Below are positions 207 through 23,392 of a DNA stretch of 23,392 nucleotides, piece by piece; within the stretch, counting starts at the first letter, position 1; each line of letters begins with the position of its first letter. The DNA lies in the UHGV virus genome UHGV-1348655; one strand, written 5' to 3'. This DNA comes from a virus. The notes under the pieces are model-generated. The model searched no databases, was not told where the DNA came from, and saw only the letters and a list, made by a program, of their open reading frames with translations. A program made the translations under genes and the position numbers.

Positions 207-345
207 GATGACTTGCATACAATCCCGGCATTCTTCCGGCAGAAATGATTATTCGCCAACGCGTAAAGCCAATGCCATCGAGAGAGGAATTGCTTAAGAG
301 AAATAGTTTCGGTTCTGTTAATGACAACAAATATCTGAATGCAAT

Positions 346-825: not shown

Positions 826-1139
826 CGATCACAAAACAACGGGTAGAAGAAATCATATCCCGCATTGAAATGTATGGGCATGGTGCAGGGTATACCGCCG
901 AAGAGGTTTATGACCTGGCTGTACTGGCGCTGAATTTATCAAATATCGCAAACCTGAAGCGATACGAGCTTGATATGGATGGATGTGACTCGTGCGGTCA
1001 GGATTGTGGCGCTGACATGACTGAAGATTCTGATGGCGATTATGTCCTGTTTGATGACGTGGTTAAGTTGTTTGAGTTTGATACAACCACTCAGAAGCTA
1101 GAAAGCCCAGCAAAGGAGGCAACCAGTGAGCAAGATTGA
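822..1139 (+). CDS. Hypothetical acidic early accessory protein, 105 aa
   Basis: ORF coupled to the upstream gene by an ATGA overlap; an AGGAGG for the next gene lies in its 3' end. Confidence 0.5.
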   Translation: MTITKQRVEEIISRIEMYGHGAGYTAEEVYDLAVLALNLSNIANLKRYELDMDGCDSCGQDCGADMTEDSDGDYVLFDDVVKLFEFDTTTQKLESPAKEATSEQD

Positions 1140-2127
1140 CTATCAGGTACTGCGTGAGGCAGCAGTAGCAATTGAAACAGTAGCAACGCCTCAAAAATTG
1201 CTGGCATTTCGTATGAAATTCACACCTCAGGTTGTGCTGGCACTGCTGGATGAACGGGAAAGAAACCAGCAATACATCAAACGCCGCGACCAGGAGAACG
1301 AGGAAATTGCGCTAACGGTAGGGAAACTGCGTGTTGAGCTGGAAGGCAAAGACAGCAAAATAGCCAATCTTACCGCAGAACGCGATGCTCTTCGTGAAGG
1401 TGAGATGGGCGACGCTAGGCATAGCAACACACGGTCCGCAGCTGATATCTACTTCCAACTGGTCGAGGAGTGCGAAATTCCTGCTGGCGGATCTCTGGTC
1501 GAGTACGTTGATGATATGCGCGAGAAGCTGGAAGCCGCAGAGAAGCGCATTGCAGAACTGGAGTCGCTGACGGTACCACAGTTACCGCAGCCAGCGCCGG
1601 TAGCTGTGCCTGATGCGATGGAAATGGATGATGACTTTGACAGCGCGTTTGAACACGGAAAAGCTGTCGGCTGGAACGCCTATCGCGCCGCCATGCTTCA
1701 GGCCGAACCTGTAAGTAATAGTGATGAGTTACCGCTGGACTATCTGCAAGGACACAAAGACGGCCTGGAGTGGGCTGCACAATTGGCAGAAGCCAATCAT
1801 CCGCAAACAGGTGACTGGTTGTACGACGACCCAATCGATCTTGCCAGGGCGATTCGCAAAGGTCCTGATATGCCTACTGTTCAGGCTGGCAACTCTCCGG
1901 TAACTCCGGATGGTTGGATAAGCTGTAGTGAGCGAATGCCTGAAAAGGGCCAGAATGTGCTTATTTCGGTGAATTTCGATAGCTCTCTGGTTGAACCGCT
2001 AATATGCTCCGCACGCTATACCGGAAGCACCTTTCGGCGCGGAGATGCAACGATTAAGCCGGGTAATGGTATTGAGCAAGCAACTCACTGGATGCCGCTA
2101 CCAGAACCTCCGCTGGAGGCGAAGTAA
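1126..2127 (+). CDS. Ea22-like protein with C-terminal DUF551-type domain, 333 aa
   Basis: GTG start at 1126 preceded by AGGAGG (1114-1119). Residues LLDERERNQQYIKRRDQENEEIALTVGKLRVELE match lambda Ea22 as I recall it; the C-terminus (GWISCSERMPEKG...THWMPLPEPP) has the DUF551 signature common in prophage early regions. Confidence 0.75.
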   Translation: MSKIDYQVLREAAVAIETVATPQKLLAFRMKFTPQVVLALLDERERNQQYIKRRDQENEEIALTVGKLRVELEGKDSKIANLTAERDALREGEMGDARHSNTRSAADIYFQLVEECEIPAGGSLVEYVDDMREKLEAAEKRIAELESLTVPQLPQPAPVAVPDAMEMDDDFDSAFEHGKAVGWNAYRAAMLQAEPVSNSDELPLDYLQGHKDGLEWAAQLAEANHPQTGDWLYDDPIDLARAIRKGPDMPTVQAGNSPVTPDGWISCSERMPEKGQNVLISVNFDSSLVEPLICSARYTGSTFRRGDATIKPGNGIEQATHWMPLPEPPLEAK

Positions 2128-2525
2128 TGGAAAATGAAAGCGACAACGTCATCTCTCTGGTGCAGCCAAAGCGCAATGAAGAGAAACTGCTGAACATCAC
2201 TGTAACTGACAGAAAAAACTACATACAACATAGCTGTAAGCATCGGGCTATCGAGGTTTGTGAAACTGATCGCGTTGTTCGTTGCACAAAGTGCGGCTGC
2301 GTTATTGACCCCTTCGAGCACATCCTGCAGGTAGCTACTGATGGTGAGCATATCGTCACTGAGATTGAGCAACTCCATCGTCGCCGTGATGAGTTGCGCG
2401 AGTCTGTAGCCAACCTTGAGCGCGAAGAAAAGAACACCAAAGCACGGTTGCGAGCAGCAAGGACTGCAATACTGTATGCGGAAAATGACCTTAAAAATAT
2501 TGAGCAGGAGGTTAACCATGGCTAA
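2127..2525 (+). CDS. Hypothetical protein with Cys/His zinc-finger-like cluster and coiled-coil C-terminus, 132 aa
   Basis: TAATG overlap with the upstream gene; spaced Cys/His residues (HSCKH ... CTKCGC ... H) followed by a charged heptad-like tail. Confidence 0.55.
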   Translation: MENESDNVISLVQPKRNEEKLLNITVTDRKNYIQHSCKHRAIEVCETDRVVRCTKCGCVIDPFEHILQVATDGEHIVTEIEQLHRRRDELRESVANLEREEKNTKARLRAARTAILYAENDLKNIEQEVNHG

Positions 2526-2557
2526 CCTGCAACTTGCCGTCAAAGGTGAATAACAAT

Positions 2558-2612
2558 CCTCGCACTCGCGGGGATTTCTTTTATCTGAACTCGCTACGGC
2601 GAGTTTTGCTTT
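2558..2612 (+). terminator. Tandem intrinsic-terminator-like hairpins after the 132-aa gene
   Basis: CCTCGC-act-GCGGGG (2558-2573) followed by ATTTCTTTT, then AACTCGC-tacg-GCGAGTT (2588-2605) followed by TTGCTTT. Confidence 0.4.
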
Positions 2613-2625
2613 ATGGAGATGATAA

Positions 2626-2793
2626 ATGTACTTTCGAGTCACAGGTGAATGGAATGGAGAACCATTCAACAGGGTTATCGAAGCAGAGGACTTCAACGAC
2701 TGCTATGACCACTTGATGATATGGGCGCAGATAGCACATGCAGACGTAACCAATATTCGAATTGAAGAACTGAAAGAACACAAAACCGCCTGA
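2626..2793 (+). CDS. Small hypothetical protein, 55 aa (below the ORF-track size cutoff)
   Basis: ATG 2626 preceded by GGAG (2615-2618); open frame to TGA 2791-2793; a strong terminator follows immediately. Confidence 0.4.
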   Translation: MYFRVTGEWNGEPFNRVIEAEDFNDCYDHLMIWAQIAHADVTNIRIEELKEHKTA

Positions 2794-2809
2794 TGGCGGT
2801 TTTTTCTTG
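2782..2809 (+). terminator. Rho-independent terminator upstream of xis
   Basis: AAAACCGCC-tgat-GGCGGTTTT hairpin followed by TTTTTCTT. Confidence 0.6.
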
Positions 2810-2832
2810 CGTGTAATTGCGGAGACTTTGCG

Positions 2833-3051
2833 ATGTACTTGACACTTCAGGAGTGGAACGCACGCCAGCGACGCCCAAGAAGCCTTGAAACAGTTCGTCG
2901 ATGGGTACGCGAGTGCAGGATATTCCCTCCTCCGGTTAAGGATGGAAGAGAGTATCTGTTCCACGAATCAGCGGTAAAGGTTGACTTAAATCGACCAGTA
3001 ACAGGTAGCCTTTTGAAGAGGATCAGAAATGGGAAGAAGGCGAAGTCATGA
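2833..3051 (+). CDS. xis: Excisionase Xis, lambda type, 72 aa
   Basis: Sequence MYLTLQEWNARQRRPRSLETVRRWVRECRIFPPPVKDGREYLFHESAVKVDL matches lambda Xis; overlaps the int start as in lambda. Confidence 0.9.
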   Translation: MYLTLQEWNARQRRPRSLETVRRWVRECRIFPPPVKDGREYLFHESAVKVDLNRPVTGSLLKRIRNGKKAKS

Positions 3052-4099
3052 GCGCCGGGATTTACCCCCTAACCTTTATATAAGAAACAATGGATATTAC
3101 TGCTACAGGGACCAAAGGACGGGTAAAGAGTTTGGATTAGGCAGAGACAGGCGAATCGCAATCACTGAAGCCATACAGGCCAACATTGAGTTATTTTCAG
3201 GACACAAACACAAGCCTCTGACAGCGAGAATCAACAGTGATAATTCCGTTACGTTACATTCATGGCTTGATCGCTACGAAAAAATCCTGGCCAGCAGAGG
3301 AATCAAGCAGAAGACACTCATAAATTACATGAGCAAAATTAAAGCAATAAGGAGGGGTCTGCCTGATGCTCCACTTGAAGACATCACCACAAAAGAAATT
3401 GCGGCAATGCTCAATGGATACATAGACGAGGGCAAGGCGGCATCAGCCAAGTTAATCAGATCAACACTGAGCGATGCATTCCGAGAGGCTATAGCTGAAG
3501 GCCATATAACAACAAACCCGGTCGCAGCCACTCGCGCTGCAAAATCAGAGGTAAGGAGATCAAGACTTACGGCTGACGAATACCTGAAAATTTATCAAGC
3601 AGCAGAATCATCACCATGTTGGCTTAGACTTGCAATGGAACTGGCTGTTGTTACCGGGCAGCGAGTTGGTGATTTATGCGAAATGAAGTGGTCTGATATC
3701 GTAGATGGATATCTTTATGTCGAGCAAAGCAAAACAGGCGTAAAAATTGCCATCCCAACAGCATTGCATGTTGATGCTCTCGGAATATCAATGAAGGAAA
3801 CACTTGATAAATGCAAAGAGATTCTTGGCGGAGAAACCATAATTGCATCTACTCGTCGCGAACCGCTTTCATCCGGCACAGTATCAAGGTATTTTATGCG
3901 CGCACGAAAAGCATCAGGTCTTTCCTTCGAAGGGGATCCGCCTACCTTTCACGAGTTGCGCAGTTTGTCTGCAAGACTCTATGAGAAGCAGATAAGCGAT
4001 AAGTTTGCTCAACATCTTCTCGGGCATAAGTCGGACACCATGGCATCACAGTATCGTGATGACAGAGGCAGGGAGTGGGACAAAATTGAAATCAAATAA
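3029..4099 (+). CDS. int: Tyrosine integrase Int, lambda type, 356 aa
   Basis: Near-identical to lambda Int from MGRRRSHERRDLPPNLYIRNNGYYCYRD to the C-terminal catalytic region (HELRSLSARLY ... LLGHKSDTMASQY). Confidence 0.95.
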   Translation: MGRRRSHERRDLPPNLYIRNNGYYCYRDQRTGKEFGLGRDRRIAITEAIQANIELFSGHKHKPLTARINSDNSVTLHSWLDRYEKILASRGIKQKTLINYMSKIKAIRRGLPDAPLEDITTKEIAAMLNGYIDEGKAASAKLIRSTLSDAFREAIAEGHITTNPVAATRAAKSEVRRSRLTADEYLKIYQAAESSPCWLRLAMELAVVTGQRVGDLCEMKWSDIVDGYLYVEQSKTGVKIAIPTALHVDALGISMKETLDKCKEILGGETIIASTRREPLSSGTVSRYFMRARKASGLSFEGDPPTFHELRSLSARLYEKQISDKFAQHLLGHKSDTMASQYRDDRGREWDKIEIK

Positions 4100-4330
4100 T
4101 GATTTTATTTTGACTGATAGTGACCTGTTCGTTGCAACAAATTGATAAGCAATGCTTTTTTATAATGCCAACTTAGTATAAAAAAGCTGAACGCGAAACA
4201 GCAAAAGACAATAATATCAATGTGTTACAATGCATTTAGTCTAAAAGATAGACTGCATAATGCTACAAAACACAACATATCCAGTCACTATGAATCAACT
4301 ACTTAGATGGTATTAGTGACCTGTAACAGA
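4100..4330. other. Intact attP (P' arm, 15-bp core 4173-4187, P arm)
   Basis: The core is the reverse complement of the lambda core GCTTTTTTATACTAA. The int-proximal arm (4100-4172) matches lambda exactly as I recall it; the distal arm (4188-4330) is homologous but diverged centrally and keeps CAGTCACTAT-type arm sites. Confidence 0.8.
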
Positions 4331-4332
4331 GC

Positions 4333-4377
4333 ATTAGCGCAAGGTGATTTTTTGTCCTCTTGCGCTAATTTTTTGTC
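4333..4377 (+). terminator. sib/tI-like hairpin and terminator downstream of int across attP
   Basis: 11-bp stem ATTAGCGCAAG / CTTGCGCTAAT (4333-4343, 4359-4369) with a 15-nt loop, followed by TTTTTGTC; position matches the lambda sib retroregulation element. Confidence 0.65.
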
Positions 4378-4671
4378 AACTCACTGGGTTAGTTGAATTT
4401 ACAACCATGCTCAGTATCTCGATAAGCGCAGAGAAATGATGCAGTGGTGGGCGGATTGGCTTGATGAGAAGGTGTCATAGGGAAGCAGAACAAAGCCTTG
4501 CAAACCGATGCAAAGCATTGTGTGTACCACGTTACAGTTAATGAAAAACAATCATAAATGTCAATGATGTACATCTGAGAACCACATGCATAAAACATGA
4601 TTTCATTGGCTGATCAGAAGCTTCTCAAGTGCTACACTATCCAAGTCTGTTTTCGTCACGGTTAACTGACA

Positions 4672-4709
4672 AACAGGGCCCCGGCTATGAGAGTAGTTGG
4701 GGCCCTGTT
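4672..4709 (-). terminator. Hairpin 30 bp downstream of the membrane-enzyme gene (candidate terminator)
   Basis: AACAGGGCCCC ... GGGGCCCTGTT, an 11-bp GC-rich stem; on the minus strand it is followed by TTTGTCAGTT. Confidence 0.5.
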
Positions 4710-4739
4710 ATTACAACAAGGTTAAACAATCTATAATCT

Positions 4740-6197
4740 TTATTGCATGATATCTTTTGAAGACAACCCGTTTACAATTGGATTATATTGATAAAGCTTT
4801 TTGTCATATGACATTATCATTGGGTTATCATTTTCTTTAGAAAAAATATCATAGTTATCTATTGTTAAATTTGTCTTGACACCAATCCATGAAGCAAAAA
4901 AGTCAATAAAATGCTTGGCGCTTCTAGTTGTATCTGCCATTGTTGTTTCTTTGTCATCGCTAGAGGCAACAAAAAATGGAACTTGGTATGATTGTTTTTT
5001 TGATGCATCTCTTCTTACCTTATAACCATTGCCATCTTTAATCATATTTAATCCATGATCTGAAAAATACACCATGGAAAATGATTCACCAGAATCCTCA
5101 AGATATGTATATATATCCTTAATGAAATCATCTGTTTTGTTGTAAGTTGAAAGGTAGCAATTAACAACCCTGCCACTTTTTGTTTTATATTTTATTGGAT
5201 AATCAAACAATCGATCGCAAGGATATTCATGAGATCCAACAATATGAACAAATATAACTTTTCTTTCTTTTAGTTTTATCTTCTCTTTTATTACTGGAAG
5301 CAATCCGAAGTCATCAGCCTTGTTAAAATATTTAAATTTCGCATAGTTAGATATTCTGCTTGATGCAATATTATACTGCCCTGAATAACCTTGTGATGAT
5401 ATCCAAAAAGTATTAAGTCCAGCCATGTTTGCTAGCTCAACAATGTTGTCCTGCTCATAAACAGAACCATTATCACTTGTTTTAGACAGTATTCTTGGTA
5501 CGGCTAGAGTTGTGTTTATTGCTGTAGTTATATAATTACTAATGTATCTCTTGGGGATTGAGTCTATAAACGGTGTCGTATCTAAACTAAACCCATATAG
5601 CGACATGAAATCCTTTCTCATGGACTCACCAATAACAACAACATATGTATTATACTTTGGTGTAATCTTATTTTTTATCAACCAAGAACTTGCAGGAAGA
5701 TTATCTACCTGTAGGCTTTTATATTCCTTAATGATATCTGAAACCAACCCACCGAATATCATAAAGTAGCATGAAGATGTAATTAGTAGCAATGGGGTTA
5801 ATGTTATTAAAATTAATTTTCTTCTTATTTTTTTCTGTTCATAATTGAATGCATATATGATCGTGAAAACAAAAAGAAAAACTGAACAGACCATTATTAT
5901 TAAGTGCGTTGTTGGGATTGACATATGGAACTGTATTGTCTCGCTTATGTCTGTAGCAAGAAGTACGTCCAATAGTGACGGCTTTAATAGTCCTTTTGTT
6001 AGAATTGCATCTGGAATCAATACGCTAAGTAATATTCCAAAAATTAGCAATATAGTTCTTGGTATTTTAAACAAAGATAAAGAAAATAAAGTTATAAACG
6101 ATAGAAATAAAATTGATATATTTATGCTGCCAATTGCTATATATTGCATCAAATATGATAGCACAAAACTACATATTGCTATTAATAACAACTTCAC
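4740..6197 (-). CDS. Inner-membrane sulfatase-superfamily enzyme, phosphoethanolamine-transferase-like (EptA/MCR/YhbX-type), 485 aa
   Basis: GTG start at 6197 with AGAGGA 8 nt upstream. About five hydrophobic helices in the first ~160 residues, then a soluble domain with motifs VVVIGESMRKD, VHIVGSHEYP and YFSDHG that resemble the metal and nucleophile motifs of that family. The gene is visibly much more AT-rich than the phage backbone. Confidence 0.8.
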   Translation of the reverse strand: MKLLLIAICSFVLSYLMQYIAIGSINISILFLSFITLFSLSLFKIPRTILLIFGILLSVLIPDAILTKGLLKPSLLDVLLATDISETIQFHMSIPTTHLIIMVCSVFLFVFTIIYAFNYEQKKIRRKLILITLTPLLLITSSCYFMIFGGLVSDIIKEYKSLQVDNLPASSWLIKNKITPKYNTYVVVIGESMRKDFMSLYGFSLDTTPFIDSIPKRYISNYITTAINTTLAVPRILSKTSDNGSVYEQDNIVELANMAGLNTFWISSQGYSGQYNIASSRISNYAKFKYFNKADDFGLLPVIKEKIKLKERKVIFVHIVGSHEYPCDRLFDYPIKYKTKSGRVVNCYLSTYNKTDDFIKDIYTYLEDSGESFSMVYFSDHGLNMIKDGNGYKVRRDASKKQSYQVPFFVASSDDKETTMADTTRSAKHFIDFFASWIGVKTNLTIDNYDIFSKENDNPMIMSYDKKLYQYNPIVNGLSSKDIMQ

Positions 6198-6237
6198 TAA
6201 TACAGTCCTCTGTTAAGGAATATTAAATAGTGATGTT

Positions 6238-6243
6238 ATTATA
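6238..6243 (-). promoter_or_regulatory. Candidate -10 hexamer (TATAAT on minus strand) for the membrane-enzyme gene
   Basis: The minus strand reads GAGTATAAT about 40 bp upstream of the GTG start; the -35 element is weak or ambiguous. Confidence 0.3.
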
Positions 6244-6402
6244 CTCATTTTTTATAGTAATGAAAGATTCATTTTAAATGACATTCACATTTGATCGCCT
6301 TCTCCTACTGTAGGAGCGAGAAGGCGTGCTTAGTTGCTATAATTACTGGTGATGCTGCCAACTTACTGATTTAGTGTATGATGGTGTTTTTGAGGTGCTC
6401 CA

Positions 6403-6678
6403 GTGGCTTCTGTTTCTATCAGCTGTCCCTCCTGTTCAGCTACTGACGGGGTGGTGCGTAACGGCAAAAGCACCGCCGGACATCAGCGCTATCTCTGCTC
6501 TCACTGCCGTAAAACATGGCAACTGCAGTTCACTTACACCGCTTCTCAACCCGGTACGCACCAGAAAATCATTGATATGGCCATGAATGGCGTTGGATGC
6601 CGGGCAACAGCCCGCATTATGGGCGTTGGCCTCAACACGATTTTACGTCACTTAAAAAACTCAGGCCGCAGTCGGTAA
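6403..6678 (+). CDS. insA: IS1 InsA, 91 aa
   Basis: [43 protein letters not shown] is the canonical InsA sequence. Confidence 0.95.
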
Positions 6679-7100
6679 CCTCGCGCATACAGCCTGGCAG
6701 TGACGTCATCGTCTGCGCGGAAATGGACGAACAGTGGGGCTATGTCGGGGCTAAATCGCGCCAGCGCTGGCTGTTTTACGCGTATGACAGGCTACGGAAG
6801 ACGGTTGTTGCGCACGTATTCGGTGAACGCACTATGGCGACGCTGGGGCGTCTTATGAGCCTGCTGTCACCCTTTGACGTGGTGATATGGATGACGGATG
6901 GCTGGCCGCTTTATGAATCACGCCTGAAGGGAGAACTGCACGTTATCAGCAAGCGATATACGCAGCGCATTGAGCGGCATAACCTGAATCTGAGGCAACA
7001 TCTGGCAAGGCTGGGCAGGAAGTCACTGTCGTTCTCAAAATCGGTGGAGCTGCATGACAAAGTCATCGGGCATTATCCGAACATAAAACACTATCAGTAA
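6597..7100 (+). CDS. insB: IS1 InsB frame (transposase is made as InsAB' by a -1 frameshift)
   Basis: Canonical InsB reading frame overlapping the insA 3' end; the A-run frameshift site lies in the overlap. Confidence 0.9.
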
Positions 7101-7127
7101 GTTGGAGTCATTACCTAATTACTTAAT

Positions 7128-8948
7128 CTATTTTATTGACAGAACGCCAGATAAGGATATTTGTCTAGCAGAGCCAGATGATACATCTGTCCATCTGGCA
7201 TATCTTGTTGTTCCGTCGATGAAAGTTAATAAAAATTTAGCCGTGTTATCTGACACCACCTCTAAGGAAACATCATATAATTGTTTAGCTGAGTTTGCTG
7301 TAGCGTAGTAAAATGCGTACAGGCCACCATTAACTGTACCTCCAAATCCAGATTTAATGCCATAAACAGGAGCTATATTAACAATTACATCACCTGTTGC
7401 TGACGGTATAGCTGTTACTGTTGTAGCTATGGAAAAACTTAATGTGTTATACCATATTCCAGAGTTCAGAGTTTGGCCCGACATCGTTACACCAGCAGCA
7501 CTTGCAAGGACAGCTCCAGAGTTAGGTCCAATGGTCATTCCTGTACGCATTTTTTCAGCATATCCGTAGCCCGAGAAGTGATTACGAGCTATACCGGAAG
7601 CGCCTTCGAAAGATACCCAAAGATCTGTAGCATAATCGGGATTACTTACGCTAAAGTTATGGAATGAAGAACCCTGTGACGTGGTTATCATAGGTAACGT
7701 ACTTTTTCGAGGTGTGTCATTTTTAGACGCGGCAATAAGTACATCCGTAAAACTGGTATCCCACGCATCACAAATAAGCCCCACCCCACCGTTACTTCTA
7801 GACGGAACACTACCAGTGTTGCGCCTAACTGGAGTATCTAGGATTAAGTTAGAATACGAGGTGAAACCACCATTCTCAGTAACCCATAGCCCTACGTGCA
7901 TTTTCCCCATGACACCGACTAAATTATCTACGGTATTACCCCAAGGATGGAACTTATCTAAAGAGTTACCGGATTTAATAACCTTACCACCGTATGCGTA
8001 ACCAACTGGTGAAATCTCTGAATACCAGCCGTCCGTACATTTAATATGTAGGCCGATTGACTGGTCGGCTCGCGTATTTGCCACTACCATAGTGAATTTA
8101 GACGCTTTACCTTCGTAGCAAAATTCGTCCTCAAAACCGCCGTTGTTGAACCCAATTATTGCGCCGCCTTCGTATGTGTATCCGTAGCAATGTTGCACCC
8201 TAACGCCGATAGCGTTAATTCCTACCGTGTAATCCTGCGCCTCTAAACGCAAGCCGTAACAGTTAGTTTTGTTAGCTAGCGTAAAATGATCGGAGTTGTC
8301 GTAAGATGGGGTATCGGCACCACCATCCATTATATACGCATATGTTGAACTCAAACCGGCAGGAACAATTGCACGATGATTATTCCAGTAAACAGTAACC
8401 CCAGGCTTATGCATGATAGGAATTGTACTAAAAATGATGTCTTCATTCACATAAAGAACGCCGCCGCCACTTTCTGATATCTCAGTCATAGCTGCGTTAA
8501 ATGCATCTTCTCCTATTCCCCATCCGCGAAGGTCGCCTTCATCTTTCCATTTTTGTATAAGGGATGGAATAAGAAAATAGCCATCAGGTCCAGCAAGAAC
8601 CTGTCTTAGTTGGTCAGGGTCATACTTCAGCACATTCGGAAAATTAAACTGCTGCGCACCGTACGCATCATACACAGCCATAGAATGTCCTTGCACAGTA
8701 ACGAACTTGGCAATCTGTCCGTTATATACCGGATATCCAGCAGCGTTAATGATGATTGGTTGCGAAACAGGAACGTGAGAACCGTCTTCGTTCTCCACAT
8801 AAACCTGAATCTGGTTTTCAGGATTTACAGGGTCAGTGTCAATTTTACCGATATAAATTTTGCCATTGGCTACGGCTTTAAAAGAACGCGCCATAGTGAA
8901 GAGTTGCGAAGGCATCGATACGATCACATTGGCTGTAATGTCTGTCAT
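7128..8948 (-). CDS. Tailspike protein, 606 aa: P22-type N-terminal head-binding domain plus a divergent receptor-binding domain
   Basis: The N-terminus [46 protein letters not shown] ... VLKYDPDQ matches the P22/Sf6 tailspike head-binding domain; the remainder is unrelated to P22 gp9. GGAG lies 8 nt upstream of the ATG. Confidence 0.85.
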
Positions 8949-9080
8949 TTAATTTGCTCCAGATACAATGAATCGCCGCAGCGTGGCCACGGTTGGTATT
9001 TGTTGCATACCGAAACGGTACGATTGTTGATTTGTACAGTAGGTTTTACGATGCCATTCCACCCATTTGGTGAGGCATTG

Positions 9081-9344
9081 ATGATGTACAGCAAATACGA
9101 TGAGGCGCAGTTCCACTTGAGGCTTACGCACGAGTTGCACGCTAAGATTAAGCAGCGTGCAAAAATGAATAACAGGTCGCTGAACTCAGAGATAATTGCA
9201 GCGATTGAAGAATCATTGGATAAACAAAGCTCTGCATCAGTTTACATTGACGATGCAGAGCGTATGGCAGAACAACAATCCGATATGGTAAAGAAAATTG
9301 TCTTTGATACGCTCAAAGAGCTATATAAAAAAGACAGCAGCTAA
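9081..9344 (+). CDS. mnt: Mnt-like ribbon-helix-helix repressor, 87 aa
   Basis: The track ORF 8610..9344 is over-extended; the real start is ATG 9081 with GGTGAGG upstream. The C-terminus ERMAEQQSDMVKKIVFDTLKELYKK matches P22 Mnt (ERLADEQSELVKKMVFDTLKDLYKK as I recall it). It is transcribed divergently from the late operon, as in P22 immI. Confidence 0.75.
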   Translation: MMYSKYDEAQFHLRLTHELHAKIKQRAKMNNRSLNSEIIAAIEESLDKQSSASVYIDDAERMAEQQSDMVKKIVFDTLKELYKKDSS

Positions 9345-9364
9345 CTATCAGTTACGGAGGATTT

Positions 9365-9442
9365 ATGCAAAGAGATATGCTGAATATTGCGTTCTACATA
9401 TTTGGTTTTTGCACGTTCCTGGTGTTTGCGAAGCTATTCTGA
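9365..9442 (+). CDS. Candidate 25-aa hydrophobic micro-protein (MQRDMLNIAFYIFGFCTFLVFAKLF)
   Basis: ATG 9365 preceded by GGAGG (9356-9360) with a 4-nt spacer; a single predicted transmembrane helix; its 3' end overlaps the ejection-protein gene on the other strand. Confidence 0.25.
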   Translation: MQRDMLNIAFYIFGFCTFLVFAKLF

Positions 9443-12819: not shown

Positions 12820-12828
12820 GATTACCCC

Positions 12829-13521: not shown

Positions 13522-13523
13522 GG

Positions 13524-14680: not shown

Positions 14681-16098
14681 TACTCGATCCTTATCTGGCA
14701 GCCAGACAGAGTGACAGGTGACTTCGTGATAATGCGCAATTTGAAGCCGACATTTTTCCTGATGCGCCCTACTCGCTTCCACAAAACACGTTTGTCGTAA
14801 ACGAACGGTTCATTCTGCTCAATCATCTGCTCACGTCCGTAATTGATGCCGTCAGTGGTTGCAGAGAGGAACAGGCGGTCGGCGTACTGCGCAACGCCAG
14901 TTGACGACTCAACTTCAAGGTCGAAAACTCTGGCGTTATCTGCTTTGAACAACGGAGTAAACAGCAGGTGTTCCTGTTGCTTGTCGTACTGGCTGCTGAT
15001 ATCGAACTGCAATTTCCCGGTCACCGATTCCAGCTTATCGCCGCACGTTATTTGATTGCCTTCGTAAATGAAGTCGATAGCGCGGTACACATCGTCATAC
15101 AGGCCTGTTTTCAACACACACCATTGCGGACCATTGGCGCTTGAAGATGCGTCGTAAACAAGAACATGGCGCGGCAGGTGAATAATCAGCAACTCATGAG
15201 CATCAAACCGCAACGATTCCATCACGCCATCAGCCAGTTCATCAGCAGCGTAGGAGCGTAGTATTTTCTCAATGCTCGCGCTGGCGATTGGTGATACCTG
15301 ACCGGAGGCGATGATGTATACAGACGGAGCACCTGTTGCCGGATTGCTGATGAACGCATAGGAATCAGCGAATGGCGTTTTGCAATAGGTTCCGGCAATA
15401 CCTTTCTGCACCATCAGCGATGGTTGTGCAACATACAAAGCGGCACCAACGGTGGTTGCACCAGTCAGGGAGAAATATTCAATCGTCGATGAACCAAAGC
15501 AGACGATGAAGTCTCGCCATGTTCCGATGCCAATGATGCCGTCAGGCTGAGACTCAGCACGATATTGTGCGCTGTATCGGTCAGGATGCGATTCGTCTTC
15601 AAGGTCAGTGATAAACCATGAATCAGTGCCGTCTTTTGACCACGCATAACGCCCACGTAAGCGTGTAATGTCGCGGACTGAACCTAACTCATACTGAGTA
15701 AATCCACTGTCTGCAGGCCAGTTTGAGACGGTTTTAACCGTGCCATCATAGCGATACTCGACCAGTTGACCATTAACGCCTACCGCCTGTGATGTCCGAC
15801 CATGCGCCATTGATACGCGACCACTTCCGGCAACATCACCGACCTCACTTTCGCCCTTATACAACTTGCTACCACACACTCGATAAACAGCACTCTGCGC
15901 CATGTTGTACTCGACGCCGCGCGATATACCGTTCACATCAGAACGTTTGGCAATGCCCGGGAATGAGCGAAGATATCCGCTGCTGTTGAGGATTTCTTTG
16001 GGTGTAGCCAACATATTCACTGGCAGATAGTCGATATAGTCGGCGTTTCGAAAGTCTTTGCCGACACCTTTCATAAGAGGAAGTTGCTGAATCGGCAT
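14680..16098 (-). CDS. Tail hub protein, P22 gp10-like, 472 aa
   Basis: Same length as P22 gp10 (472 aa); synteny after the gp4-like gene. Confidence 0.8.
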
Positions 16099-16599
16099 TT
16101 ATTCGCTCCCGTTATCGCAAGGTTCCTTTCGGTGGAAGTAATTCCAACCGTTCCACTTCGCCAACTGGTTACCGCTACCAACAGGCATACGGTTTGGATA
16201 ACCGGACTTACATTTAGCGGCTTTTGCTCTGTCCATTGCAGACAGTTTGACGAGTCGCTCTTTCCCGTATCTGGCAGTGGTTATAAGTTTTGCAGACGCT
16301 TCCAGCGCATAATCTGGAGCGATGCGGCAGGCAAGGTTGAAAATGACGGCATTGATAGCGTTATTTGATAAACCGTGCTCATCTCCCGGATCTGGAGCGA
16401 CATCTGCATCAGCGAAAATGTAGCCAACGTTGATCCCAGGTGACGCATCACCGCCAAGCCATTCAGCCATCATCATTTCAAGGTCGTTGACGCCGTCTTC
16501 CATAGACTGCGGTTCGACATCGGTTAACGTGGCATTTGATGCCACACCGAGCTTACGTAATGCCGCAAGAACTAAATCACCCTTCGTTGTCAGGTTCAT
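16099..16599 (-). CDS. Head-to-tail adaptor, P22 gp4-like, about 166 aa
   Basis: The track ORF is over-extended; the likely start is ATG 16599 ([33 protein letters not shown] ... [14 protein letters not shown]), which matches P22 gp4. Confidence 0.8.
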
Positions 16600-17164
16600 C
16601 TGCTGCCGCCTTAGGTTTTCGACCAGGCTTTTTACGCTGTTTTTCTTCTGGCTCTGCAATGGCCGGACGCAAACTCAGGAGTCGTCCAAGAACATCATTT
16701 GCTTCATGACCATCCCACTCTTTCCCGAACTCAAGCTCAGTACCTTCAGGAAGGAACTCGATTTCTTCAACAGGTAGGTGATAAGTGATTTCGCCTTCTG
16801 GAGTGGTGATACCAGCAATGATCCAGCCATCCCACTCTTCACCGTCACTGTGTTTGCGAGACCACCACGAAAGCTCAGCGTAAGCATGCATCAGCGATGA
16901 GAAGAGGCGCACTCGGTGAGCGTAAAGCTCGTTAAAAGTGTGATAACCGTCGGACACTTCGCCCATATCAACTGGGGAAGTTTCACCTCCGCCAACACTC
17001 CCAATTTGATCACCAACAAGATGATCATCAGGAACATCGTCAGGGTGCTTATACCAGCCATTTGCTAAGTGCACAGCTACATCATCAGGATCAACGGTTT
17101 TCGTTTTCAGCTTGCGTCCCCATATTTTGGTATCTCCGCCAGCCTGAAAAATCATTACGCTCAT
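16577..17164 (-). CDS. Hypothetical acidic protein (about 195 aa) inserted between coat and gp4-like genes
   Basis: Likely start is ATG 17164 with GGAG 8 nt upstream (the track start at 17344 would overlap the coat gene). Asp/Glu-rich with a Lys/Arg-rich C-terminal tail; P22 has no gene at this position, though Sf6-type phages carry one of unknown function. Confidence 0.6.
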
Positions 17165-17170
17165 TGGTAT

Positions 17171-17199
17171 CTCCAATAGAAAAGGGAGCCTAAGCTCCC
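17171..17199 (-). terminator. Hairpin plus U-tract immediately after the coat gene (partial terminator/attenuator)
   Basis: GGGAGC-ctaa-GCTCCC (17184-17199); on the minus strand it is followed by TTTTCTATT; lies 9 nt after the coat stop. Confidence 0.5.
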
Positions 17200-17207
17200 T
17201 CTGGTTA

Positions 17208-18503
17208 TCACGCGGTCTGGTTAGGCAGACCAACACCAATTGCCTCTGGTCGTACAGCACATGCTGAATACCACACAGCAATACGGCACTTACCAGACAG
17301 AGTGTTGATATCACCCTGCGTTGCGAAGATGCCGTTAACACCAATACCAGGAATGCTGAAGGAAGACGTTTTCATACCAGCAAACAGTTCATGGGTTACC
17401 GGGATCGGCTGAGACAGCAGGCGGATTGAGTCATCAGCCCAGAACACGTTAGCGGTGGTTGTTGCCACGTTCAGAACGTTTACCGGAGTGGTATCAGCAA
17501 GAGAGGTGTTTACGTTAGCGTAAGCCTTCTCTTCTTTTGTCAGTGACGCGTCATCAAGTGCAATCGGCTTCGGCGTGATTTCGATGTGAGTACCATCGAT
17601 CACACGGGTGATTGAGAAAGTCGCGTCATCAGTCAGCACGTTCTTCGCCATCTGAGACAGGAATTTCACGCCAGTGAAGCTGATTTTGTCGCCGCGCTTA
17701 AATCCGGTGGTGGAGGATACGGTCACCGTTGCAACACGGTTGTCGACGTTCTCTTTGTTACCATCGGTATCAAGGGTGTATGCCTGCGGCTTAAACTTCT
17801 GCGCACCAGAAACAGTTACACCAGTAGCGGTTGACTTGGTAACTGCCGGAAGTTTCGGTGAGCGAAGAATTTCATCAAAGCCAGCAATCTGACGCTGAAT
17901 AGTACCGTTGCGATACGCTTCTTCAGGAACGCGACCAAAGATGTCACCATCTACCAGGTTGCGGCCTGCTTTGCGGTAATCGTCAGGGTTCAGGAAGTAA
18001 CTGATGCCCATGTCGCGGTTGAGTTCTCGGGAGAACATCAGGCGCTCTGCATCAGACACAAAATCCCAGCCAGACAGGCCAGTAGATGGACCAATTGCGC
18101 GGGTGTCGTGAACAACAAGTGAGCCCATTTCAGTTGCCTGTTTGGCAATCGCTGACTCAATGTTATTCGCCAGTTTTTTGGCAGATGCCTGGATGCGGCG
18201 ACGGTAAGAACGCTCATCACGCAGGTCATCTGCACGAAGCTCGAAGAAATCGTTATCCGGATCGCCCATGTTGCATTTCACGGAGAGTTCCAGAATACCG
18301 GTTGCGTTGCCAGTTAAATCCCAGCCAGTCTGGGTTGGCGCTTCCTGCTCAACAGGCATCCACACGGTGTTGCTTGAACGCTGCATGGATTCTGCCGGAG
18401 GGGTGTATTTTGTCACTTTGGACGCCATTGGCGTCAGGTTCTGGACGGTTTCGATGATTTCATCCAGAGCATACGTGACCAGTTGACCTTCATTTAATGC
18501 CAT
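17208..18503 (-). CDS. Major capsid (coat) protein, P22 gp5-like, 431 aa
   Basis: Size (P22 coat is 430 aa) and position after the scaffold gene; TAATG coupling. Confidence 0.85.
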
Positions 18504-19414
18504 TATCGAATTCCTTTATTCAGTTGCGCCTTAAGCTTGCGGTACGTCTCTACATCCCCTTTGTTTGCTGCCGCTTCCATCTGCTTTTCAATCGCAGAGA
18601 TATTTGCAGCAACAGCGTGCCCCTGAATGGGTTCATCAGGTAACGGGGCTTCTGAAACAGGCTTGGCTCGAGGCTTGAGAGTTAAACGTTCTGACAGTCG
18701 AGTGAGTTCAATCAGCGCGGATTGCCCGTCCATCGCCAGCAACTGGCGTGTTTTCTCAGGATTAGCACCAAGGTGATACATGAGAGCGGCGGATTTCTCC
18801 GGGAAGAGGCGCATGATGTCGGCACCGACTGCTGGCGGCACCAGTTGCATGAATGCATCCTCTTTCTCCTGATAGTCAGGGATATTGAGCTTTTCCGCTG
18901 CGTCGTAGTGCTTACGGGCCGCCTCGACGTATTGCGCTGATTGCTGGGTGAACTCCTGAGTTTTGCGACCCTGCTCGGCGACAGCATGGCTTCGTGCGTC
19001 CATAGCCTTGATCTGCCATTCACTGTTTGCCTGCTGGAAGGCAGCCAGTGCGCGGCTCTGGTCATAGTCGTACTTAGCCAGTGCATCTTCGGAAAGATAA
19101 TCGTTAGGGTCTGGTTGTTTTGGTAACTCAGGGTTCACCCGCAGGTGCTCCGGCAACTCTCCCCGCTTAACCGCTTCCATCTGCTGCTCAAGCTCACGCT
19201 GGCGTTTGCGTTCGATGCGGCGACGGGCAAATTCAGCATTAGTTGCCGGGTCTTGTTTTGGTTTCTCATCGTCTTTCAGGACAATCTCGAAGCCTTCTTC
19301 CTGACCTGCGTTGTCGTTGGCATTATCGACAACTAAGCCATCAGCAGATGCCGCTGCATGATTGCCGGGCAGGGTTAATTCTTCAGAAGCCTGAATGTCG
19401 GTGGTTTGGTCCAT
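18503..19414 (-). CDS. Scaffolding protein, P22 gp8-like, 303 aa
   Basis: Same length as P22 gp8 (303 aa); charged, helix-rich composition; lies between portal and coat. Confidence 0.8.
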
Positions 19415-19427
19415 GATTAACTCTCTC

Positions 19428-21647
19428 TTATTGAGGTGTCTCGGCTACTCCGCCGGAGGGGATTTGAACTTGACGCATAAGATTCGCGAAATCCATGCGT
19501 TGTGAATGAGTCTGGTCTGCATCTTTAAGAAGCAGCTCAGCGTTAGCACGAGCATCTTTGCTGCGCTGTTGCTGGAATTGACCTACGAGCTTGAGGTACT
19601 CACGCAGTTCTGCCTGCTTGTCGAGGTCCATATTGTTGAAGATTTCCGCAATCTTCGCCGCGTTGAGTTGGTTTTGTGCTTCAACCTTGGCAGCTTCAAC
19701 CTGAATCTGCGCCTGTTGGTTCTCTGCCTTGAGCAATTCAGCCTGACCTTGCAGAAGGATACCCTGCGCCTGAATTTGCTCTGCTGATGGCTGCTGCGGC
19801 TGCTGTTGAGCCGCTGACCTTCTCAACGCTAACATCATCGCCCGNNNNNNNNNNTGCTGTTGAGCCTGCTGTACCATCTCCATCTCTTCAGGTGTTTCTG
19901 GCTTCTTCAGCCCCATCATCACCAGTTGCTTGTTCGCGTACTCTCGCATCATCTCGACGCCTTTACCGTCAAGCAGCGTGAAGTATTGCAGCATCAGCAT
20001 CTGGAACTCTGGAGTACCTTGCGGAACCTTGGTGAGTAACTCCTGAATCTCTGCGCGGTTCTGTTCCTTCATACTCTGGAAGGATGGTCCAACGTCTGTA
20101 TAGCACTCATAACGACCGCGAATGTCGTTGAGTGTGACCACATTACCGGACTGGTAATCTACAACTTGCGCGTAGAGTTGAACGTCTTTCTCGCTACCAT
20201 CTTCAAGTGTCAGCGTTACATGACGAGGAACGTCATAAATATCGTTGACCATTGAGGCATAAATCTCGCCATCACGTCGCATTGCGGTAGCCAGGTTATC
20301 CTGAAACACGTATGTCTCAAGGTCTGCCCGCATGTTCAGTTGATTGACGGTATCAAAAGCAACCTGAGAGTTTGCTGCCTGCGCATCCACACCAAGACTA
20401 GCCACCTCTTTCACTGCGTTGGTGGCAGCCTCAAGCATGTAAGCGTTGGCTTGCGGCACTTCAGGGTTTTCCATGTAGGAGATTGGACCAATCGGAAGGT
20501 CGTTACCGTTTTCATCGGTCCTGTTCTGCAGATAGTACGGATAGTCATCATTTCCACCGTACATGTATTCGTAGCCTTCGATTTGCTCAGGGAAGAAGGT
20601 CGGTTTCTTCTTCGGTGAGCGAGCAACAATATCGGCGTTGAATGACATGATCATGTTACGAAGGCGTTGACCGTCTTTCGTCAGCCTTACCACGCCCTCG
20701 TAGCACTCCTTGTCACCAGCGAATGACCATTCGCCGTACACAGGAACGATTGGGATATGCTCTCCGGCTATCTTCTCGCGGTCTTTCAGTATCTGCATGC
20801 AGGTGATGATCGACTTATACACACGCCGACGCTTGACCTTACGCTCTGCTACCTTAATGAATCCACGATTAGCCAGGTCGTCGATGACGTCTTTGATATC
20901 CTGCTGGTAATAGCTGACCGGCTCACCTGTCAGCGGGTCGCGGTAGATGAAGACTTTCTCTTTCTTCTCTTCGACCTCGTAATACTCAGCGACGTAGACG
21001 ACATCATTCGATACCCACGGAAACAGCCATTTATCGTTCGGATTCTGGAAAGATGGCAAGGTGTCAGGATCAATACCGTAATCCTCTGCGAACTCTTTCC
21101 AGCCATTGCGTGACAAAGCGTTAATCACCGTGCAGTGCTTAGCGTCGCTCTTATCCATCTGCTTGCTGTTGGCGTCCCATATGACGTGTGAGCAGGCTTC
21201 ATGGATTGGCAGGCGTCGGATTACCTGATTGTTGCTTGTTGGGTCGTTGTCTTCGTACTGGGTGACCAGACGCCATGCACCAACGCCGGACTCTATCTGC
21301 TCACGAACGCCAACGTTAACGGCAATCTTTGCCGTGTTATGGCGCATATCAGTACGATACATTCCCATCAACACATCGGCAGCATCAGGATTAGCGCCGT
21401 CTTTGGGTCGGAAGAGAACGTCGATAGGGTTCCGGCGCATCTCTGCTACCAGTTTCCTGACCACCGGGCGAACAACATCGAATTGTCCGCGATATTGCAG
21501 GGTAGTGTAGTTTGATAGCCAGTCATCCCATTGCGACACTCGGCTAAAATACAGGTCATTTGTCGCCTCGGTTCTGGCTTCATCGCTCGCCATCCAGTCC
21601 GCGTCAAACTTACACAGAATGGAATTGAGTCTGTTTTCGTCGGCCAT
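19428..21647 (-). CDS. Portal protein, P22 gp1-like, 739 aa as given (interrupted by an N-run)
   Basis: The N-terminus [67 protein letters not shown] closely matches P22 portal; the C-terminal Gln-rich barrel region is present. Confidence 0.9.
19845..19854. other. Run of 10 N (sequence gap or masked bases) inside the portal gene
   Basis: Literal nnnnnnnnnn in the sequence. Confidence 0.99.
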
Positions 21648-23147
21648 TTAAGTTCTCCGTGCGATGGGCCTGATTGGGGCTGGTATCTTTTTCTCTTTTG
21701 GTTTTTTGATGTCGCGCATCATTTTGGCGAAGCGGCGCATCATGTATGCATAGCGAACGGCTGAGAGAACGTCGTCGTTAAGCTTGATGATTTTCCCGTT
21801 TTCATCACGGTGATAGAGGCGGAACTCCTCAAAGAATGGCTCACAGGTGTTGAATACTTTGAAGCGACCATCGAGCATCATGTCGCGCAATTCAGTGATG
21901 CCAGGCTCCACAGCATTACCGCCATCAGGCCATGTCGCATGCTCCTGCAACATCATAAAACCAGCATCTGCATACTGCCCTTTGAGCTGCTCACCGCCGC
22001 CCTTCTCGTGCTGGTTTCCGTCATGAGGCCATGCGGTTGGCACTTTATGCGCCCATGATTTAACAGCTCCCCATGCCTGAACGGCTGTTTTTTCTTTCGC
22101 CTTCCACACGCGTGAAACGTAGATTGTGTCTGCGTCCTTATCCCACCAAAGCTGAACCTGCGCCTGCGGGTGATCCCATCCAAAATCCATCCCGCCAATT
22201 ACGTAGAAGTGATCAGGACACTCGAACGGCTGACACTTAATCGTCTCTTCCGGTATCTGGAAGATTCGACCACTACCCATCGTAGGAATACCGCGAGCAC
22301 GCGCCTCTCTCTCATGCTCAGGATAAGATGCGATGATTTGCTCTTTCTGCTCGTCTGTGTAGTGCTCAGCGTCATAGATGGTCATGTTGACCACTTTCTG
22401 CGACTTGCTTGGATTCTTCAGGAACTTGGTAACAACGTCAGACATCCCCATCAGCGGGGTAAACGTCAGAATTGAGAATTGCCCGTATTTGTTGGTACGG
22501 GTAAGACCTTCGCCATAAATGCTGTATGGTGGCTCTTCGTCAAACCACACGCCGTGGATTGTGTCACCCTGCCAGCGAGCACGGCCTTGCGAGTATGGTT
22601 TGAAGTAGCAGATTGAAATGCCATCTTCAACGCCTTCAGCCGTGTGATGCTTAACCAGAAGATGATCAACAAGGTTCGGAAAGAAAGGAGACTTCTTCCA
22701 GCTAATGATGTCTTCTTTAGGTATGGAACCGTATCCTGGCTCATCATTCTCTTCGATACGACCACACAGGATGCGTTGAGTCGTTTTGGTTACAGTCTCG
22801 TTTGTCTCGCCGCCAATCCAGAAGACAACAGGCTCATAGAAACGCTTACCTTTCCACTCCCCACCATATTTACCATCAGCCGGATAGCCTTTTGTTCCCG
22901 GATAACGCCCGGTAAGGTGAAACGCGACTTCAGCAGCACCAGTAAATGACTTACCAAGCTGGTTACCAGCCATAAAACAGCGCTCTGGATAGTCATGCCC
23001 GGCGTCGATGAACTCACGCTGTTTGCTGTATGGCGTAAATTCATATAGCAGGTGTGTGTTCCGGTAGTTCTCTTCTTCTTCGAGTAGCTCGAGCAATTCG
23101 ATTTGCTCTTCGTCGCTCAGGTTATCAAGAATCGCGTCCAGTTCCAC
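21648..23147 (-). CDS. Terminase large subunit, P22 gp2-like, 499 aa
   Basis: Same length as P22 gp2 (499 aa); lies immediately upstream of the portal gene; overlaps the 3' end of the small-terminase gene. Confidence 0.9.
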
Positions 23148-23392
23148 GGTTGAATAGCTCCTTGATACGAGAGCGCCGCTTATCGCGATCTCCCTTATCA
23201 GGTGTCACGTCTTCAACTTGCGACTGCTCTTTGAGTCCCAAATCACGGGCGATGATGTTAGCGTTGAGAAGGTCAGCGGCTGCGCCAGAGAATTTCTGGT
23301 CGTAGATGACCTGCTCTGCTCGCGTAACGACTTCAGATAAATCTTCTCGCAGGCGATATGTGCGCCATGTTTCAAGCGTCACATCAATGAAC
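23125..23392 (-). CDS. Terminase small subunit, 3' part (5' end lies outside the window)
   Basis: Open frame running off the window edge, immediately upstream of and overlapping the large-terminase gene; contains a P22 pac-like motif. Confidence 0.6.
23321..23346 (-). promoter_or_regulatory. pac-like packaging recognition site inside the small-terminase gene
   Basis: The minus strand reads GAAGATTTATCTGAAGTCGTTACGCG, very close to the P22 pac sequence as I remember it (GAAGACTTATCTGAGGTCGTTA). Confidence 0.45.

Follow-up and report, generated by a model that had tools for sequence, protein, structure and literature searches.

The stretch of DNA analysed here, referred to throughout as the window, comprises 23,392 nt of the virus genome UHGV-1348655, and very probably belongs to a temperate podovirus of Escherichia coli, P22-like (Lederbergvirus-type) and built of interchangeable lambdoid modules, of which it covers about 23 kb. 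The window carries a lambda-type integration module and a virion module of P22-like type, and the region from attP to the tailspike gene holds a copy of IS1 and a gene for a phosphoethanolamine-transferase-like membrane protein. Open reading frames (ORFs) were mapped, and the window was compared by similarity searches with 50,697 phage records and 5,426 complete E. coli genomes. Per-gene tblastn comparisons were made with P22, Sf6, HK620, CUS-3 (reference sequence CP000711), APC_JM3.2, Huey, JEP4 and the prophage of E. coli 88-3493, and identity was mapped in 250-bp bins. The plus strand from 1 to 4099 is the distal part of an early-left operon, encoding a DUF2737 homologue, three ea-region ORFs, an Ead/Ea22-DUF551 fusion, an orf55 homologue, xis and int; the coding strand switches after attP, and the minus strand from 23392 to 7128 is the late operon. 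This gene content predicts a podoviral (short-tailed) virion and a temperate life cycle. The integration module and the sequence that follows it contain these features:

2626-2793, plus strand: orf55, homologue of lambda lambdap35 (89% amino acid identity to lambda; phrog_676)
2833-3051, plus strand: xis, excisionase (71 of 72 residues as in lambda Xis, the one change being G59S)
3029-4099, plus strand: int, lambda-type tyrosine integrase (353 of 356 residues as in lambda Int; 98.97% DNA identity)
4100-4322, no strand assigned: attP, comprising P′ arm, core and P arm, from alignments with lambda, Huey and JEP4
4326-4376, plus strand: sib/tI hairpin, with the fold seen in lambda; the match to lambda ends at 4378
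4397-4480, plus strand: relic of the 3′ end of an IntS-type (Sf6/HK620) integrase, 84 nt holding the last 27 codons and the stop codon, detected by blastx

An earlier description of this DNA, made without database searches and called here the sequence-only reading, had proposed that xis, int, the proximal arm of attP and sib are almost identical to those of lambda. The searches agree: window positions 2550-4378 align with lambda 29361-27534 in a single 1829-bp blastn match of 96.8% DNA identity, whose left edge at ~2550 lies next to orf55. Int departs from lambda Int at three positions (P29Q, H164P and I248V), and its catalytic residues R212, K235, H308, R311, H333 and Y342 are all intact. The 15-bp attP core, GCTTTTTTATACTAA, at 4173-4187 in minus-strand sense, and the P′ arm are those of lambda, and so is the stretch that presumably holds the P2-H1-P1 sites. 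The 25 substitutions that distinguish this attP from that of lambda all fall within 4194-4281, a central section of the P arm that separates the core from P2 and presumably contains the sites for Xis, Fis and integration host factor (IHF, site H2); the P arms of Huey and JEP4 have diverged in similar fashion. The sib/tI hairpin has a predicted energy of -24.1 kcal/mol, as compared with -24.3 kcal/mol in lambda (z = -5.95), both of its changes are apical, and its processing by RNase III is predicted only.

By analogy with lambda, the unit formed by orf55, xis, int, attP and sib would direct integration at the lambda attB site of E. coli, between ybhC on the gal side and ybhB-bioA. Int and Xis, with the host proteins IHF and Fis known from lambda biology, would perform the recombination, and the sib hairpin, as an RNase III substrate, would retroregulate int. 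The arrangement in the window is the non-integrated one, since P, O and P′ directly adjoin one another. This is consistent with a free or circular phage genome; a joint between tandem prophages is the less likely source.

Homology to lambda stops two bases after sib, the last functional element of the module, and the IntS relic follows. By blastx the relic matches Sf6 Int at 26 of 26 residues and HK620 Int at 27 of 28, and 77 nt of it are 100% identical to Sf6 DNA. The joint between sib and the relic is also found in Huey and JEP4, while the lambda-like records ev099, PDP110P1 and lambda h434 imm21 match the window through ~4457-4474, beyond the lambda homology and into the relic. Since these phages share the joint, the relic is best regarded as an old scar that travels with the lambda-type module, and we rejected the alternative that it signals a recent replacement in this lineage.

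The evidence on integration site comes from related elements in other genomes, not from this DNA molecule. Two contigs, L010 and L012, are 99.7-99.95% identical to the window in DNA sequence, beginning exactly at the core (4169 onward); for L012 the identity is 99.95% over 4169-6344. The order in L012 is P arm, core GCTTTTTTATACTAA, CTTGAGCGAAACGGGAAGG (junction CTTGAGCGAAACG...), then ybhB and bioABFCD, which is the arrangement of lambda attR, and the attR junction is present in both contigs. E. coli 88-3493 (NZ_CP027457.1, ~239-278 kb) has a complete P22-like prophage flanked by ybhB-bioA and ybhC; its xis (219 nt) and int (1071 nt) are at the ybhC end. Three chromosomal matches, H33 (that of 88-3493), H36 and H38, start at the attP core; H33 was the one examined in detail. 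Near-identical elements thus integrate at lambda attB in other genomes.

A different arrangement was observed in L021, a 530-kb E. coli contig. At 14700-14780 of this contig the P arm of lambda attP is joined within the core (GCTTTTT, then ACCGGAAAC...) to unrelated DNA, in a prophage without lambda int. The junction may be a fossil attR or may have arisen by recombination at a secondary site.

The other major component of the window is the virion and packaging module, in which the following genes and sites were assigned:

23125-23392, minus strand: gp3, small terminase, 3′ part, the 5′ end lying beyond the window (100% amino acid identity to P22; fragment residues 15-88)
23325-23346, minus strand: pac site within gene 3 (22 of 22 positions as in pac of P22 NC_002371, positions 4-25)
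21648-23147, minus strand: gp2, large terminase (100% APC_JM3.2, 92% P22)
19428-21647, minus strand: gp1, portal, start codon uncertain (97% APC_JM3.2, 76% P22, 33% Sf6)
18503-19414, minus strand: gp8, scaffolding protein (100% APC_JM3.2, 85% P22)
17208-18503, minus strand: gp5, coat protein, P22-type (99% APC_JM3.2, 73% P22, no Sf6 match)
16675-16887, minus strand: orf70, between the coat gene and gp4, in the position of P22 orf69 (99% to the 88-3493 prophage; no family match)
16099-16599, minus strand: gp4 (99% APC_JM3.2, 59% P22, 40% Sf6)
14680-16098, minus strand: gp10 (92-99% to P22, Sf6, HK620, CUS-3, Huey, JEP4, APC_JM3.2 and the 88-3493 prophage)
13979-14680, minus strand: gp26, tail needle, 233 aa, of the P22/HK620-length type (98% APC_JM3.2, 96% Huey, 93% HK620, 62% P22)
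13524-13979, minus strand: gp14 (94-100% to all P22-like references)
12829-13521, minus strand: gp7, ejection protein (99% Sf6, 83% P22)
11431-12819, minus strand: gp20, ejection protein, internally mosaic (92% Sf6 over residues 1-236, 69% P22, 97% 88-3493 prophage)
9434-11431, minus strand: gp16, ejection protein (98% Sf6 over its full length, 34% P22)
9081-9344, plus strand: mnt homologue, an Arc/Mnt ribbon-helix-helix repressor divergent from the late operon (Pfam)
8604-8948, minus strand: tailspike head-binding domain, residues 1-115 (Pfam PF09008, 2.6e-65, residues 1-113)
7128-8603, minus strand: tailspike receptor-binding part, residues ~116-606, unrelated to the P22, Sf6, HK620 and CUS-3 tailspikes

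The gene order gp3 (partial), gp2, gp1, gp8, gp5, orf70, gp4, gp10, gp26, gp14, gp7, gp20, gp16, tailspike is collinear with P22, and together with the per-gene tblastn results it upholds the proposal that the late operon is P22-like from small terminase to tailspike. The same order from gene 3 to gene 9 is found in P22 (NC_002371), APC_JM3.2 and IME10. What had been described as a pac-like site is identical to the annotated P22 pac throughout its 22 positions, with no match in 100 shuffles, and a function in packaging is predicted from this identity.

The designation 'P22/Sf6-type' for this virion needed to be divided. The terminase, portal, scaffold and coat proteins are 73-92% identical to those of P22 (59-92% with gp4 included) and 97-100% identical to those of APC_JM3.2. 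Their identity to the proteins of Sf6, HK620 and CUS-3 is at most 33%, where there is a match at all, and at most 40% with gp4 included. The head and packaging genes are therefore P22-type and not Sf6-type, whereas gp7, gp16 and the N-terminal half of gp20 are 92-99% identical to Sf6; the match of gp26 to Sf6 covers residues 1-141 only. The late operon is itself mosaic, and is better named a P22-type head with Sf6-like ejection proteins.

Neither of these phages resembles the window throughout. Sf6 (NC_005344) shares gp16 (98%), gp7 (99%), gp14, gp10, the tailspike head-binding domain and the 3′ relic of IntS, but differs in its type of head and terminase, has IntS acting at argW, carries oac in the slot used for lysogenic conversion and lacks mnt. 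P22 differs in integrating at thrW with an unrelated Int, in possessing sieA, arc, ant and gtrABC, in its endorhamnosidase tailspike and in gp16, which is only 34% identical. Lambda (NC_001416), a siphovirus with cos packaging, is unrelated to the window beyond 2550-4378, except that the beginning of ea22 has a stretch of 78% identity.

In the working model, gp3, gp2, gp1, gp8, gp5 and gp4 would package DNA by a headful mechanism from the P22-identical pac; downstream of this head module would follow gp10, gp26 and gp14 and then the Sf6-like ejection proteins gp7, gp20 and gp16. The head-binding domain of the tailspike would dock on the tail, and its exchangeable receptor domain would set host range.

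The Mnt homologue proposed by the sequence-only reading scores above both relevant Pfam cut-offs (PF11423 Repressor_Mnt, 52.7 bits against 20.9; PF03869 Arc, 48.6 bits against 20.4), which indicates an Arc-like DNA-binding domain together with the C-terminal tetramerization helix of Mnt; its identity is 48% to P22 Mnt and 98% to its counterpart in the E. coli no107 prophage. The surrounding interval, 8949-9433, contains neither an arc nor an ant ORF. Because the mnt homologue is divergent from the tailspike gene, its product may control a leftover P_ant-like promoter reading into that gene.

The chimeric nature of the tailspike, a P22-type head-binding N-terminus followed by an unrelated receptor domain, is equally apparent. 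The head-binding domain matches the Sf6 tailspike 7sg7 with an E-value of 1e-63 over residues 1-115, and the P22 tailspike N-terminus also matches; only the first ~115 residues are shared with the tailspikes of P22, Sf6 and HK620. The remaining 490 residues have no relatives in P22, Sf6, HK620 or CUS-3, no sequence match in the PDB past residue ~115 and no PHROG match past residue ~175. Chimeric tailspikes are the norm for the P22-like group (PMC11990801).

Relatives of the receptor part are found elsewhere. Salmonella phage LPST94 (156 kb) encodes a protein with 84% amino acid identity to it, and identities of 69-76% were obtained with proteins of the ~40-kb Escherichia phages pO91 (76%) and PH1061, the 151-kb phage ECO340P1 and a Hafnia phage. 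Full-length identity is 78-85% for more than 70 tailspikes of E. coli prophages, each of 606 aa, and one cluster is 98% identical. The exact protein has no record in an index of 153 billion genes; the nearest cluster is the one at 98%. The same receptor domain also stands behind other N-terminal anchors, namely PF18668 and the T7 tail-fibre N-terminus. Different N-terminal anchors also precede it in prophages of Hafnia, Citrobacter, Yersinia and Buttiauxella. The receptor recognized is presumably a surface glycan.

Between attP and the tailspike gene lie elements that the sequence-only reading overlooked, although those that it named are all present, at or close to the positions given and with matches well above chance. 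These are the IntS relic already described, together with the following:

4740-6197, minus strand: gene for a phosphoethanolamine-transferase-like membrane protein, 485 aa, ~33% GC (Pfam PF00884 Sulfatase, 1e-35)
6340-6347 and 7116-7123, no strand assigned: left and right copies of the 8-bp IS1 target duplication TAATTACT, read in the sequence
6348-7115, plus strand: IS1, 768 bp, with terminal inverted repeats and the ends GGTGATGCTGCCAACTTACTGAT and ...ATCAGTAAGTTGGAGTCATTACC (97-98% identity to the IS1 copies of P1 and SfIV)
6403-6678 and 6597-7100, plus strand: insA and insB, respectively, within IS1

IS1, the IntS relic and the transferase-like gene mark the actual joints between modules. 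We propose that the modules would have been joined by recombination at short shared sequences, the visible joints being the one after sib and one at the domain boundary of the tailspike. IS1 lies just upstream of the transferase-like gene, and its right duplication lies 5 bp beyond the tailspike stop codon. Those related contigs that are long enough to include the site (L009, L010 and L021) all carry IS1 there. The possibility that this IS1 is one end of a composite transposon that imported the transferase gene was considered and rejected, as it is a single copy with its own 8-bp duplication.

The presence of IS1 also bears on whether the window could have arisen by misjoining of lambda-like and P22-like contigs, for example across this element. 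IS1 is multicopy, short-read assemblies break there, and the draft contigs L009-L016 indeed end in or next to it. The link between the modules is nevertheless not at IS1 but runs by way of attP, sib, the IntS relic and the transferase gene, and IS1 itself is flanked by a clean 8-bp target duplication. Moreover, the stretch from attP to the transferase gene is continuous at 99.7-99.95% identity in the independent assemblies L010 and L012, L021 is collinear with the window through transferase gene, IS1, tailspike and mnt, and the architecture of lambda int with a P22 virion is shared by three isolated phages and one finished chromosome. An assembly artefact is therefore extremely unlikely.

The three isolated phages are JEP4 (MT740315), Huey (PQ850609) and vB_EcoP-720R6 (ON470605), P22-like podoviruses which, like the window, have lambda-type xis, int, attP and sib. 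Int and Xis of JEP4 and Huey are 99-100% identical to those of the window, and both phages carry the IntS relic downstream of sib. In 720R6 int (1071 nt) and xis (219 nt) have the lengths found here and are 97-99% identical in DNA; the 720R6 record stops at int. The terminase of JEP4 is of the same type as that of the window, but the portal, scaffold and coat proteins of all three phages are of the CUS-3 or Sf6 type and only 26-33% identical to those encoded here. They differ further in their tailspike receptor domains, ea genes and accessory genes (a UmuD-like gene in Huey; the immI region in JEP4), and none of them has the transferase gene or IS1. The chromosomal counterpart examined in detail, the 88-3493 prophage, has the IntS relic, as in the window, besides its location at lambda attB, and its gp3, gp2, gp1, gp8, gp5, gp4, gp10, gp14, gp7, gp20 and gp16 are 97-100% identical to those of the window. 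It differs in having an Sf6-type C-terminus on the tail needle, another receptor domain (in a tailspike of 675 aa), another ea region, and a conversion slot filled by an acyltransferase gene instead of IS1 and the transferase-like gene. Judged from these records, the combination of lambda Int with a P22-like virion is a mosaic type already known in JEP4, Huey, vB_EcoP-720R6 and finished E. coli chromosomes.

Could the window then be a piece of a phage or prophage that has already been described, rather than a new mosaic? Every module does have a relative at 95-100% identity (APC_JM3.2, IME10 and 88-3493 for the virion; lambda, Huey and JEP4 for int), the block from the transferase gene to the receptor domain matches L021, and the exact 485-aa protein occurs in 28 blocks of draft and metagenome assemblies. 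The highest coverage of the window is, however, 57% among the phage records (IME10) and 66% among the complete E. coli genomes, and no record in either set covers 80% or more of it; the exact tailspike is missing from the gene index mentioned above, and a scan of IMG/VR for the transferase was empty. Identity with a described genome is thus very unlikely: none of the records searched is collinear with the whole window at high identity, and we regard the window as a new mosaic of a known type. The identities and joints support the modular exchange between a lambda-type integration module and a P22-like virion module that the sequence-only reading had recognized.

Such mosaicism is well established for P22-like and other lambdoid phages (PMC11990801; bioRxiv 10.64898/2026.05.19.726188; PMC8022706). 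The genus Lederbergvirus is described in the BASEL paper as highly mosaic, and Huey as temperate on K-12 (PMC11990801), and P22-like phages use several integrases and attachment sites (PMC2629481).

The early-left end of the window contributes to the question of whether the DNA derives from a free phage or from a prophage. Its genes upstream of orf55 are as follows:

203-367, plus strand: DUF2737 (HK620 hkaI-like) gene (93-98% DNA identity to HK620, Huey and 720R6)
346-825, plus strand: orf159, ea-region, no assigned function (phrog_614, 2e-54; 84% amino acid identity to Huey)
822-1139, plus strand: orf105, ea-region, no assigned function (phrog_3126, 4e-68)
1126-2127, plus strand: gene for a 333-aa protein with an Ead/Ea22-like N-terminus and a DUF551 C-terminus (Pfam PF13935, 2e-18; PF04448, 2e-21)
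2127-2525, plus strand: orf132, ea-region, no assigned function (phrog_1621, 1e-52)

The Ea22-like gene noted previously is thus present, as judged by its Pfam Ead_Ea22 and DUF551 matches, though its product is only 62% identical to lambda Ea22, and that over residues 1-79 only; identity to HK620 hkaG is 71%. For orf105 there was no match in the reference phages compared. Comparison of translations revealed a premature stop at codon 3 of the DUF2737 homologue (MR* as compared with MRG in HK620). A shorter DUF2737 product could begin at the ATG at 245. A search of the whole window with Rfam at gathering thresholds and a transfer RNA scan gave no match.

We infer that the phage is viable, and four points weigh against that reading. 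The window ends in gene 3 and in the early-left operon, and the immunity, replication and lysis genes lie outside it, so that viability cannot be judged from the window. The IS1 insertion and the nonsense codon in the DUF2737 homologue are lesions of the types that accumulate in resident prophages. The 25 substitutions between core and P2 may bear on the efficiency of excision, though the P arms of Huey and JEP4 diverge similarly. Finally, an intact attP would also arise between two tandem copies of a prophage. An alternative source of the DNA is accordingly a resident prophage, possibly decaying or tandem, in which attP would be the joint between copies. Its lesions would fit this, tandem P22-like prophages do occur, as in E. 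coli no107, and L021 is a deleted relative that keeps only mnt, the tailspike gene, IS1 and the transferase gene. Against it, the 13 ORFs for virion and packaging proteins all have their full length and show 92-100% identity to counterparts in isolated phages (such as APC_JM3.2, Sf6 and JEP4), IS1 is intergenic and interrupts no gene, and Int, Xis, attP and sib are intact. We consider such a prophage an unlikely source, and favour a temperate phage in its non-integrated form.

In the chromosome of E. coli no107 (L005; NZ_CP075374.1) a segment that starts with the lysis cassette and extends backwards as far as the N region is present twice, ~38.6 kb apart, an arrangement that resembles a tandem P22-like prophage, and one of the copies has many frameshifted virion genes.

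The transferase-like gene occupies the lysogenic-conversion slot between attP and the tailspike gene. Tailspikes 83-84% identical to that of the window are followed by gtrABC, and in the 88-3493 prophage the acyltransferase gene is found in the same position. Because gtrABC or an acyltransferase gene fills it in relatives, we identify the slot as the classical site of O-antigen conversion genes. In the window, this slot, which elsewhere would supply glucosylation genes (gtrABC) or an O-acetyltransferase, would instead hold the transferase-like gene with IS1 upstream.

Scores of the 485-aa protein against the NCBIfam models for EptA, EptB, CptA and MCR did not exceed 63 bits, as compared with cut-offs of 404-1100. 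As these scores fall far below the cut-offs, we place the protein in the broad superfamily and under no named enzyme. Among proteins of solved structure, E. coli EptC and MCR-1 are nearest to it in sequence; identity to the solved phosphoethanolamine transferases is only 15-22%. With EptC, EptA and MCR-1 it shares a catalytic domain of the sulfatase fold and an N-terminal membrane domain. In the AlphaFold model (pLDDT 91.8) helices over residues 2-160 make up the N-terminal membrane domain, and the best folds found with Foldseek are EcEptC, full-length MCR-1 (9nww; TMq 0.64 over the whole length) and NmEptA (5fgn). Residues E191, T229, H323, D380 and H381 are invariant in 56 homologues and align with the motifs of MCR-1 and EptC; they are predicted to form the catalytic set of Glu, Thr, His and Asp-His, in which, within a periplasmic domain, Thr would be the nucleophile and Glu, His and Asp-His would bind metal. 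Unlike these chromosomal or plasmid-borne enzymes the protein is prophage-borne, and it may be likened, from published description, to Lpt-O. In the light of its fold and position, the enzyme may modify lipopolysaccharide (LPS) or O-antigen.

The gene is rare. It has no nucleotide match in the complete E. coli genomes or in the phage records, and its product has no match above 27% amino acid identity in the phage records and is at most 31.5% identical to the plasmid-encoded proteins of PLSDB; the IMG/VR scan yielded 14 pattern matches, none of which was confirmed. Apart from its own 99% cluster, the nearest homologues are at most 51% identical. A consensus scan of 4100-9500 found 12 promoter and 3 terminator matches, as compared with 17.5 and 3.4 in shuffled sequence; because these counts are at or below those of shuffled sequence, we claim no transcription signals for the gene.

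Where the gene does occur, it is found with the same neighbours. L021 is collinear with the window over 4181-9352 and 99-100% identical in each 250-bp bin from 4501 to 8500, so that the receptor domain, the transferase gene and the identically placed IS1 are all ~100% identical (L021 9611-14767; window 4487-8600). The receptor part is 100% identical in DNA to both L021 and L022 in every bin. Identity to L021 then falls at ~8500-8610, to 81-89% in the head-binding domain and mnt, which places a recombination joint inside the tailspike gene, at the boundary of the head-binding and receptor domains. L021 itself carries a prophage remnant with a 434-aa integrase, near fliE. As far as the contigs reach, the transferase gene is found with IS1 in the same position beside four integrases: lambda Int (gal-bio), IntS (argW), a 387-aa integrase and the 434-aa integrase. 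By these comparisons, the accessory block appears to move as a unit.

The position of the gene, its fold and catalytic residues, its ~100% linkage to one tailspike variant and its rarity together suggest a further reading, which we offer tentatively and consider possible rather than probable: that ~4487-8600 is a mobile unit pairing receptor recognition with phosphoethanolamine modification of the glycan that the tailspike recognizes, either O-antigen or LPS core. Serotype conversion of the Shigella flexneri O-antigen by phosphoethanolamine is known for the plasmid-borne Lpt-O (PMC3458804). Our literature search found no example of phosphoethanolamine conversion by a phage-borne gene.

That lambdoid and P22-like phages are mosaic is textbook knowledge, and GenBank already contains P22-like phages with a lambda integrase at lambda attB, so the mosaic itself carries little weight. 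The window is a clean worked example of it, with joints after sib and at the tailspike domain boundary that can be placed at base level. What it adds, modestly, is a rare transferase-like gene in the O-antigen-conversion slot, linked to one tailspike variant and to IS1. Should this gene indeed modify LPS, the range of serotype conversions known to be mediated by phages would widen. If the modification is by phosphoethanolamine, P22-like phages would have a third conversion chemistry, alongside glucosylation by gtrABC and O-acetylation by oac, and one that would be a phage-borne counterpart of the plasmid-borne Lpt-O conversion in S. flexneri. In the event of LPS modification the gene could bear on serotyping of E. 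coli, on phage resistance and possibly on susceptibility to cationic peptides.

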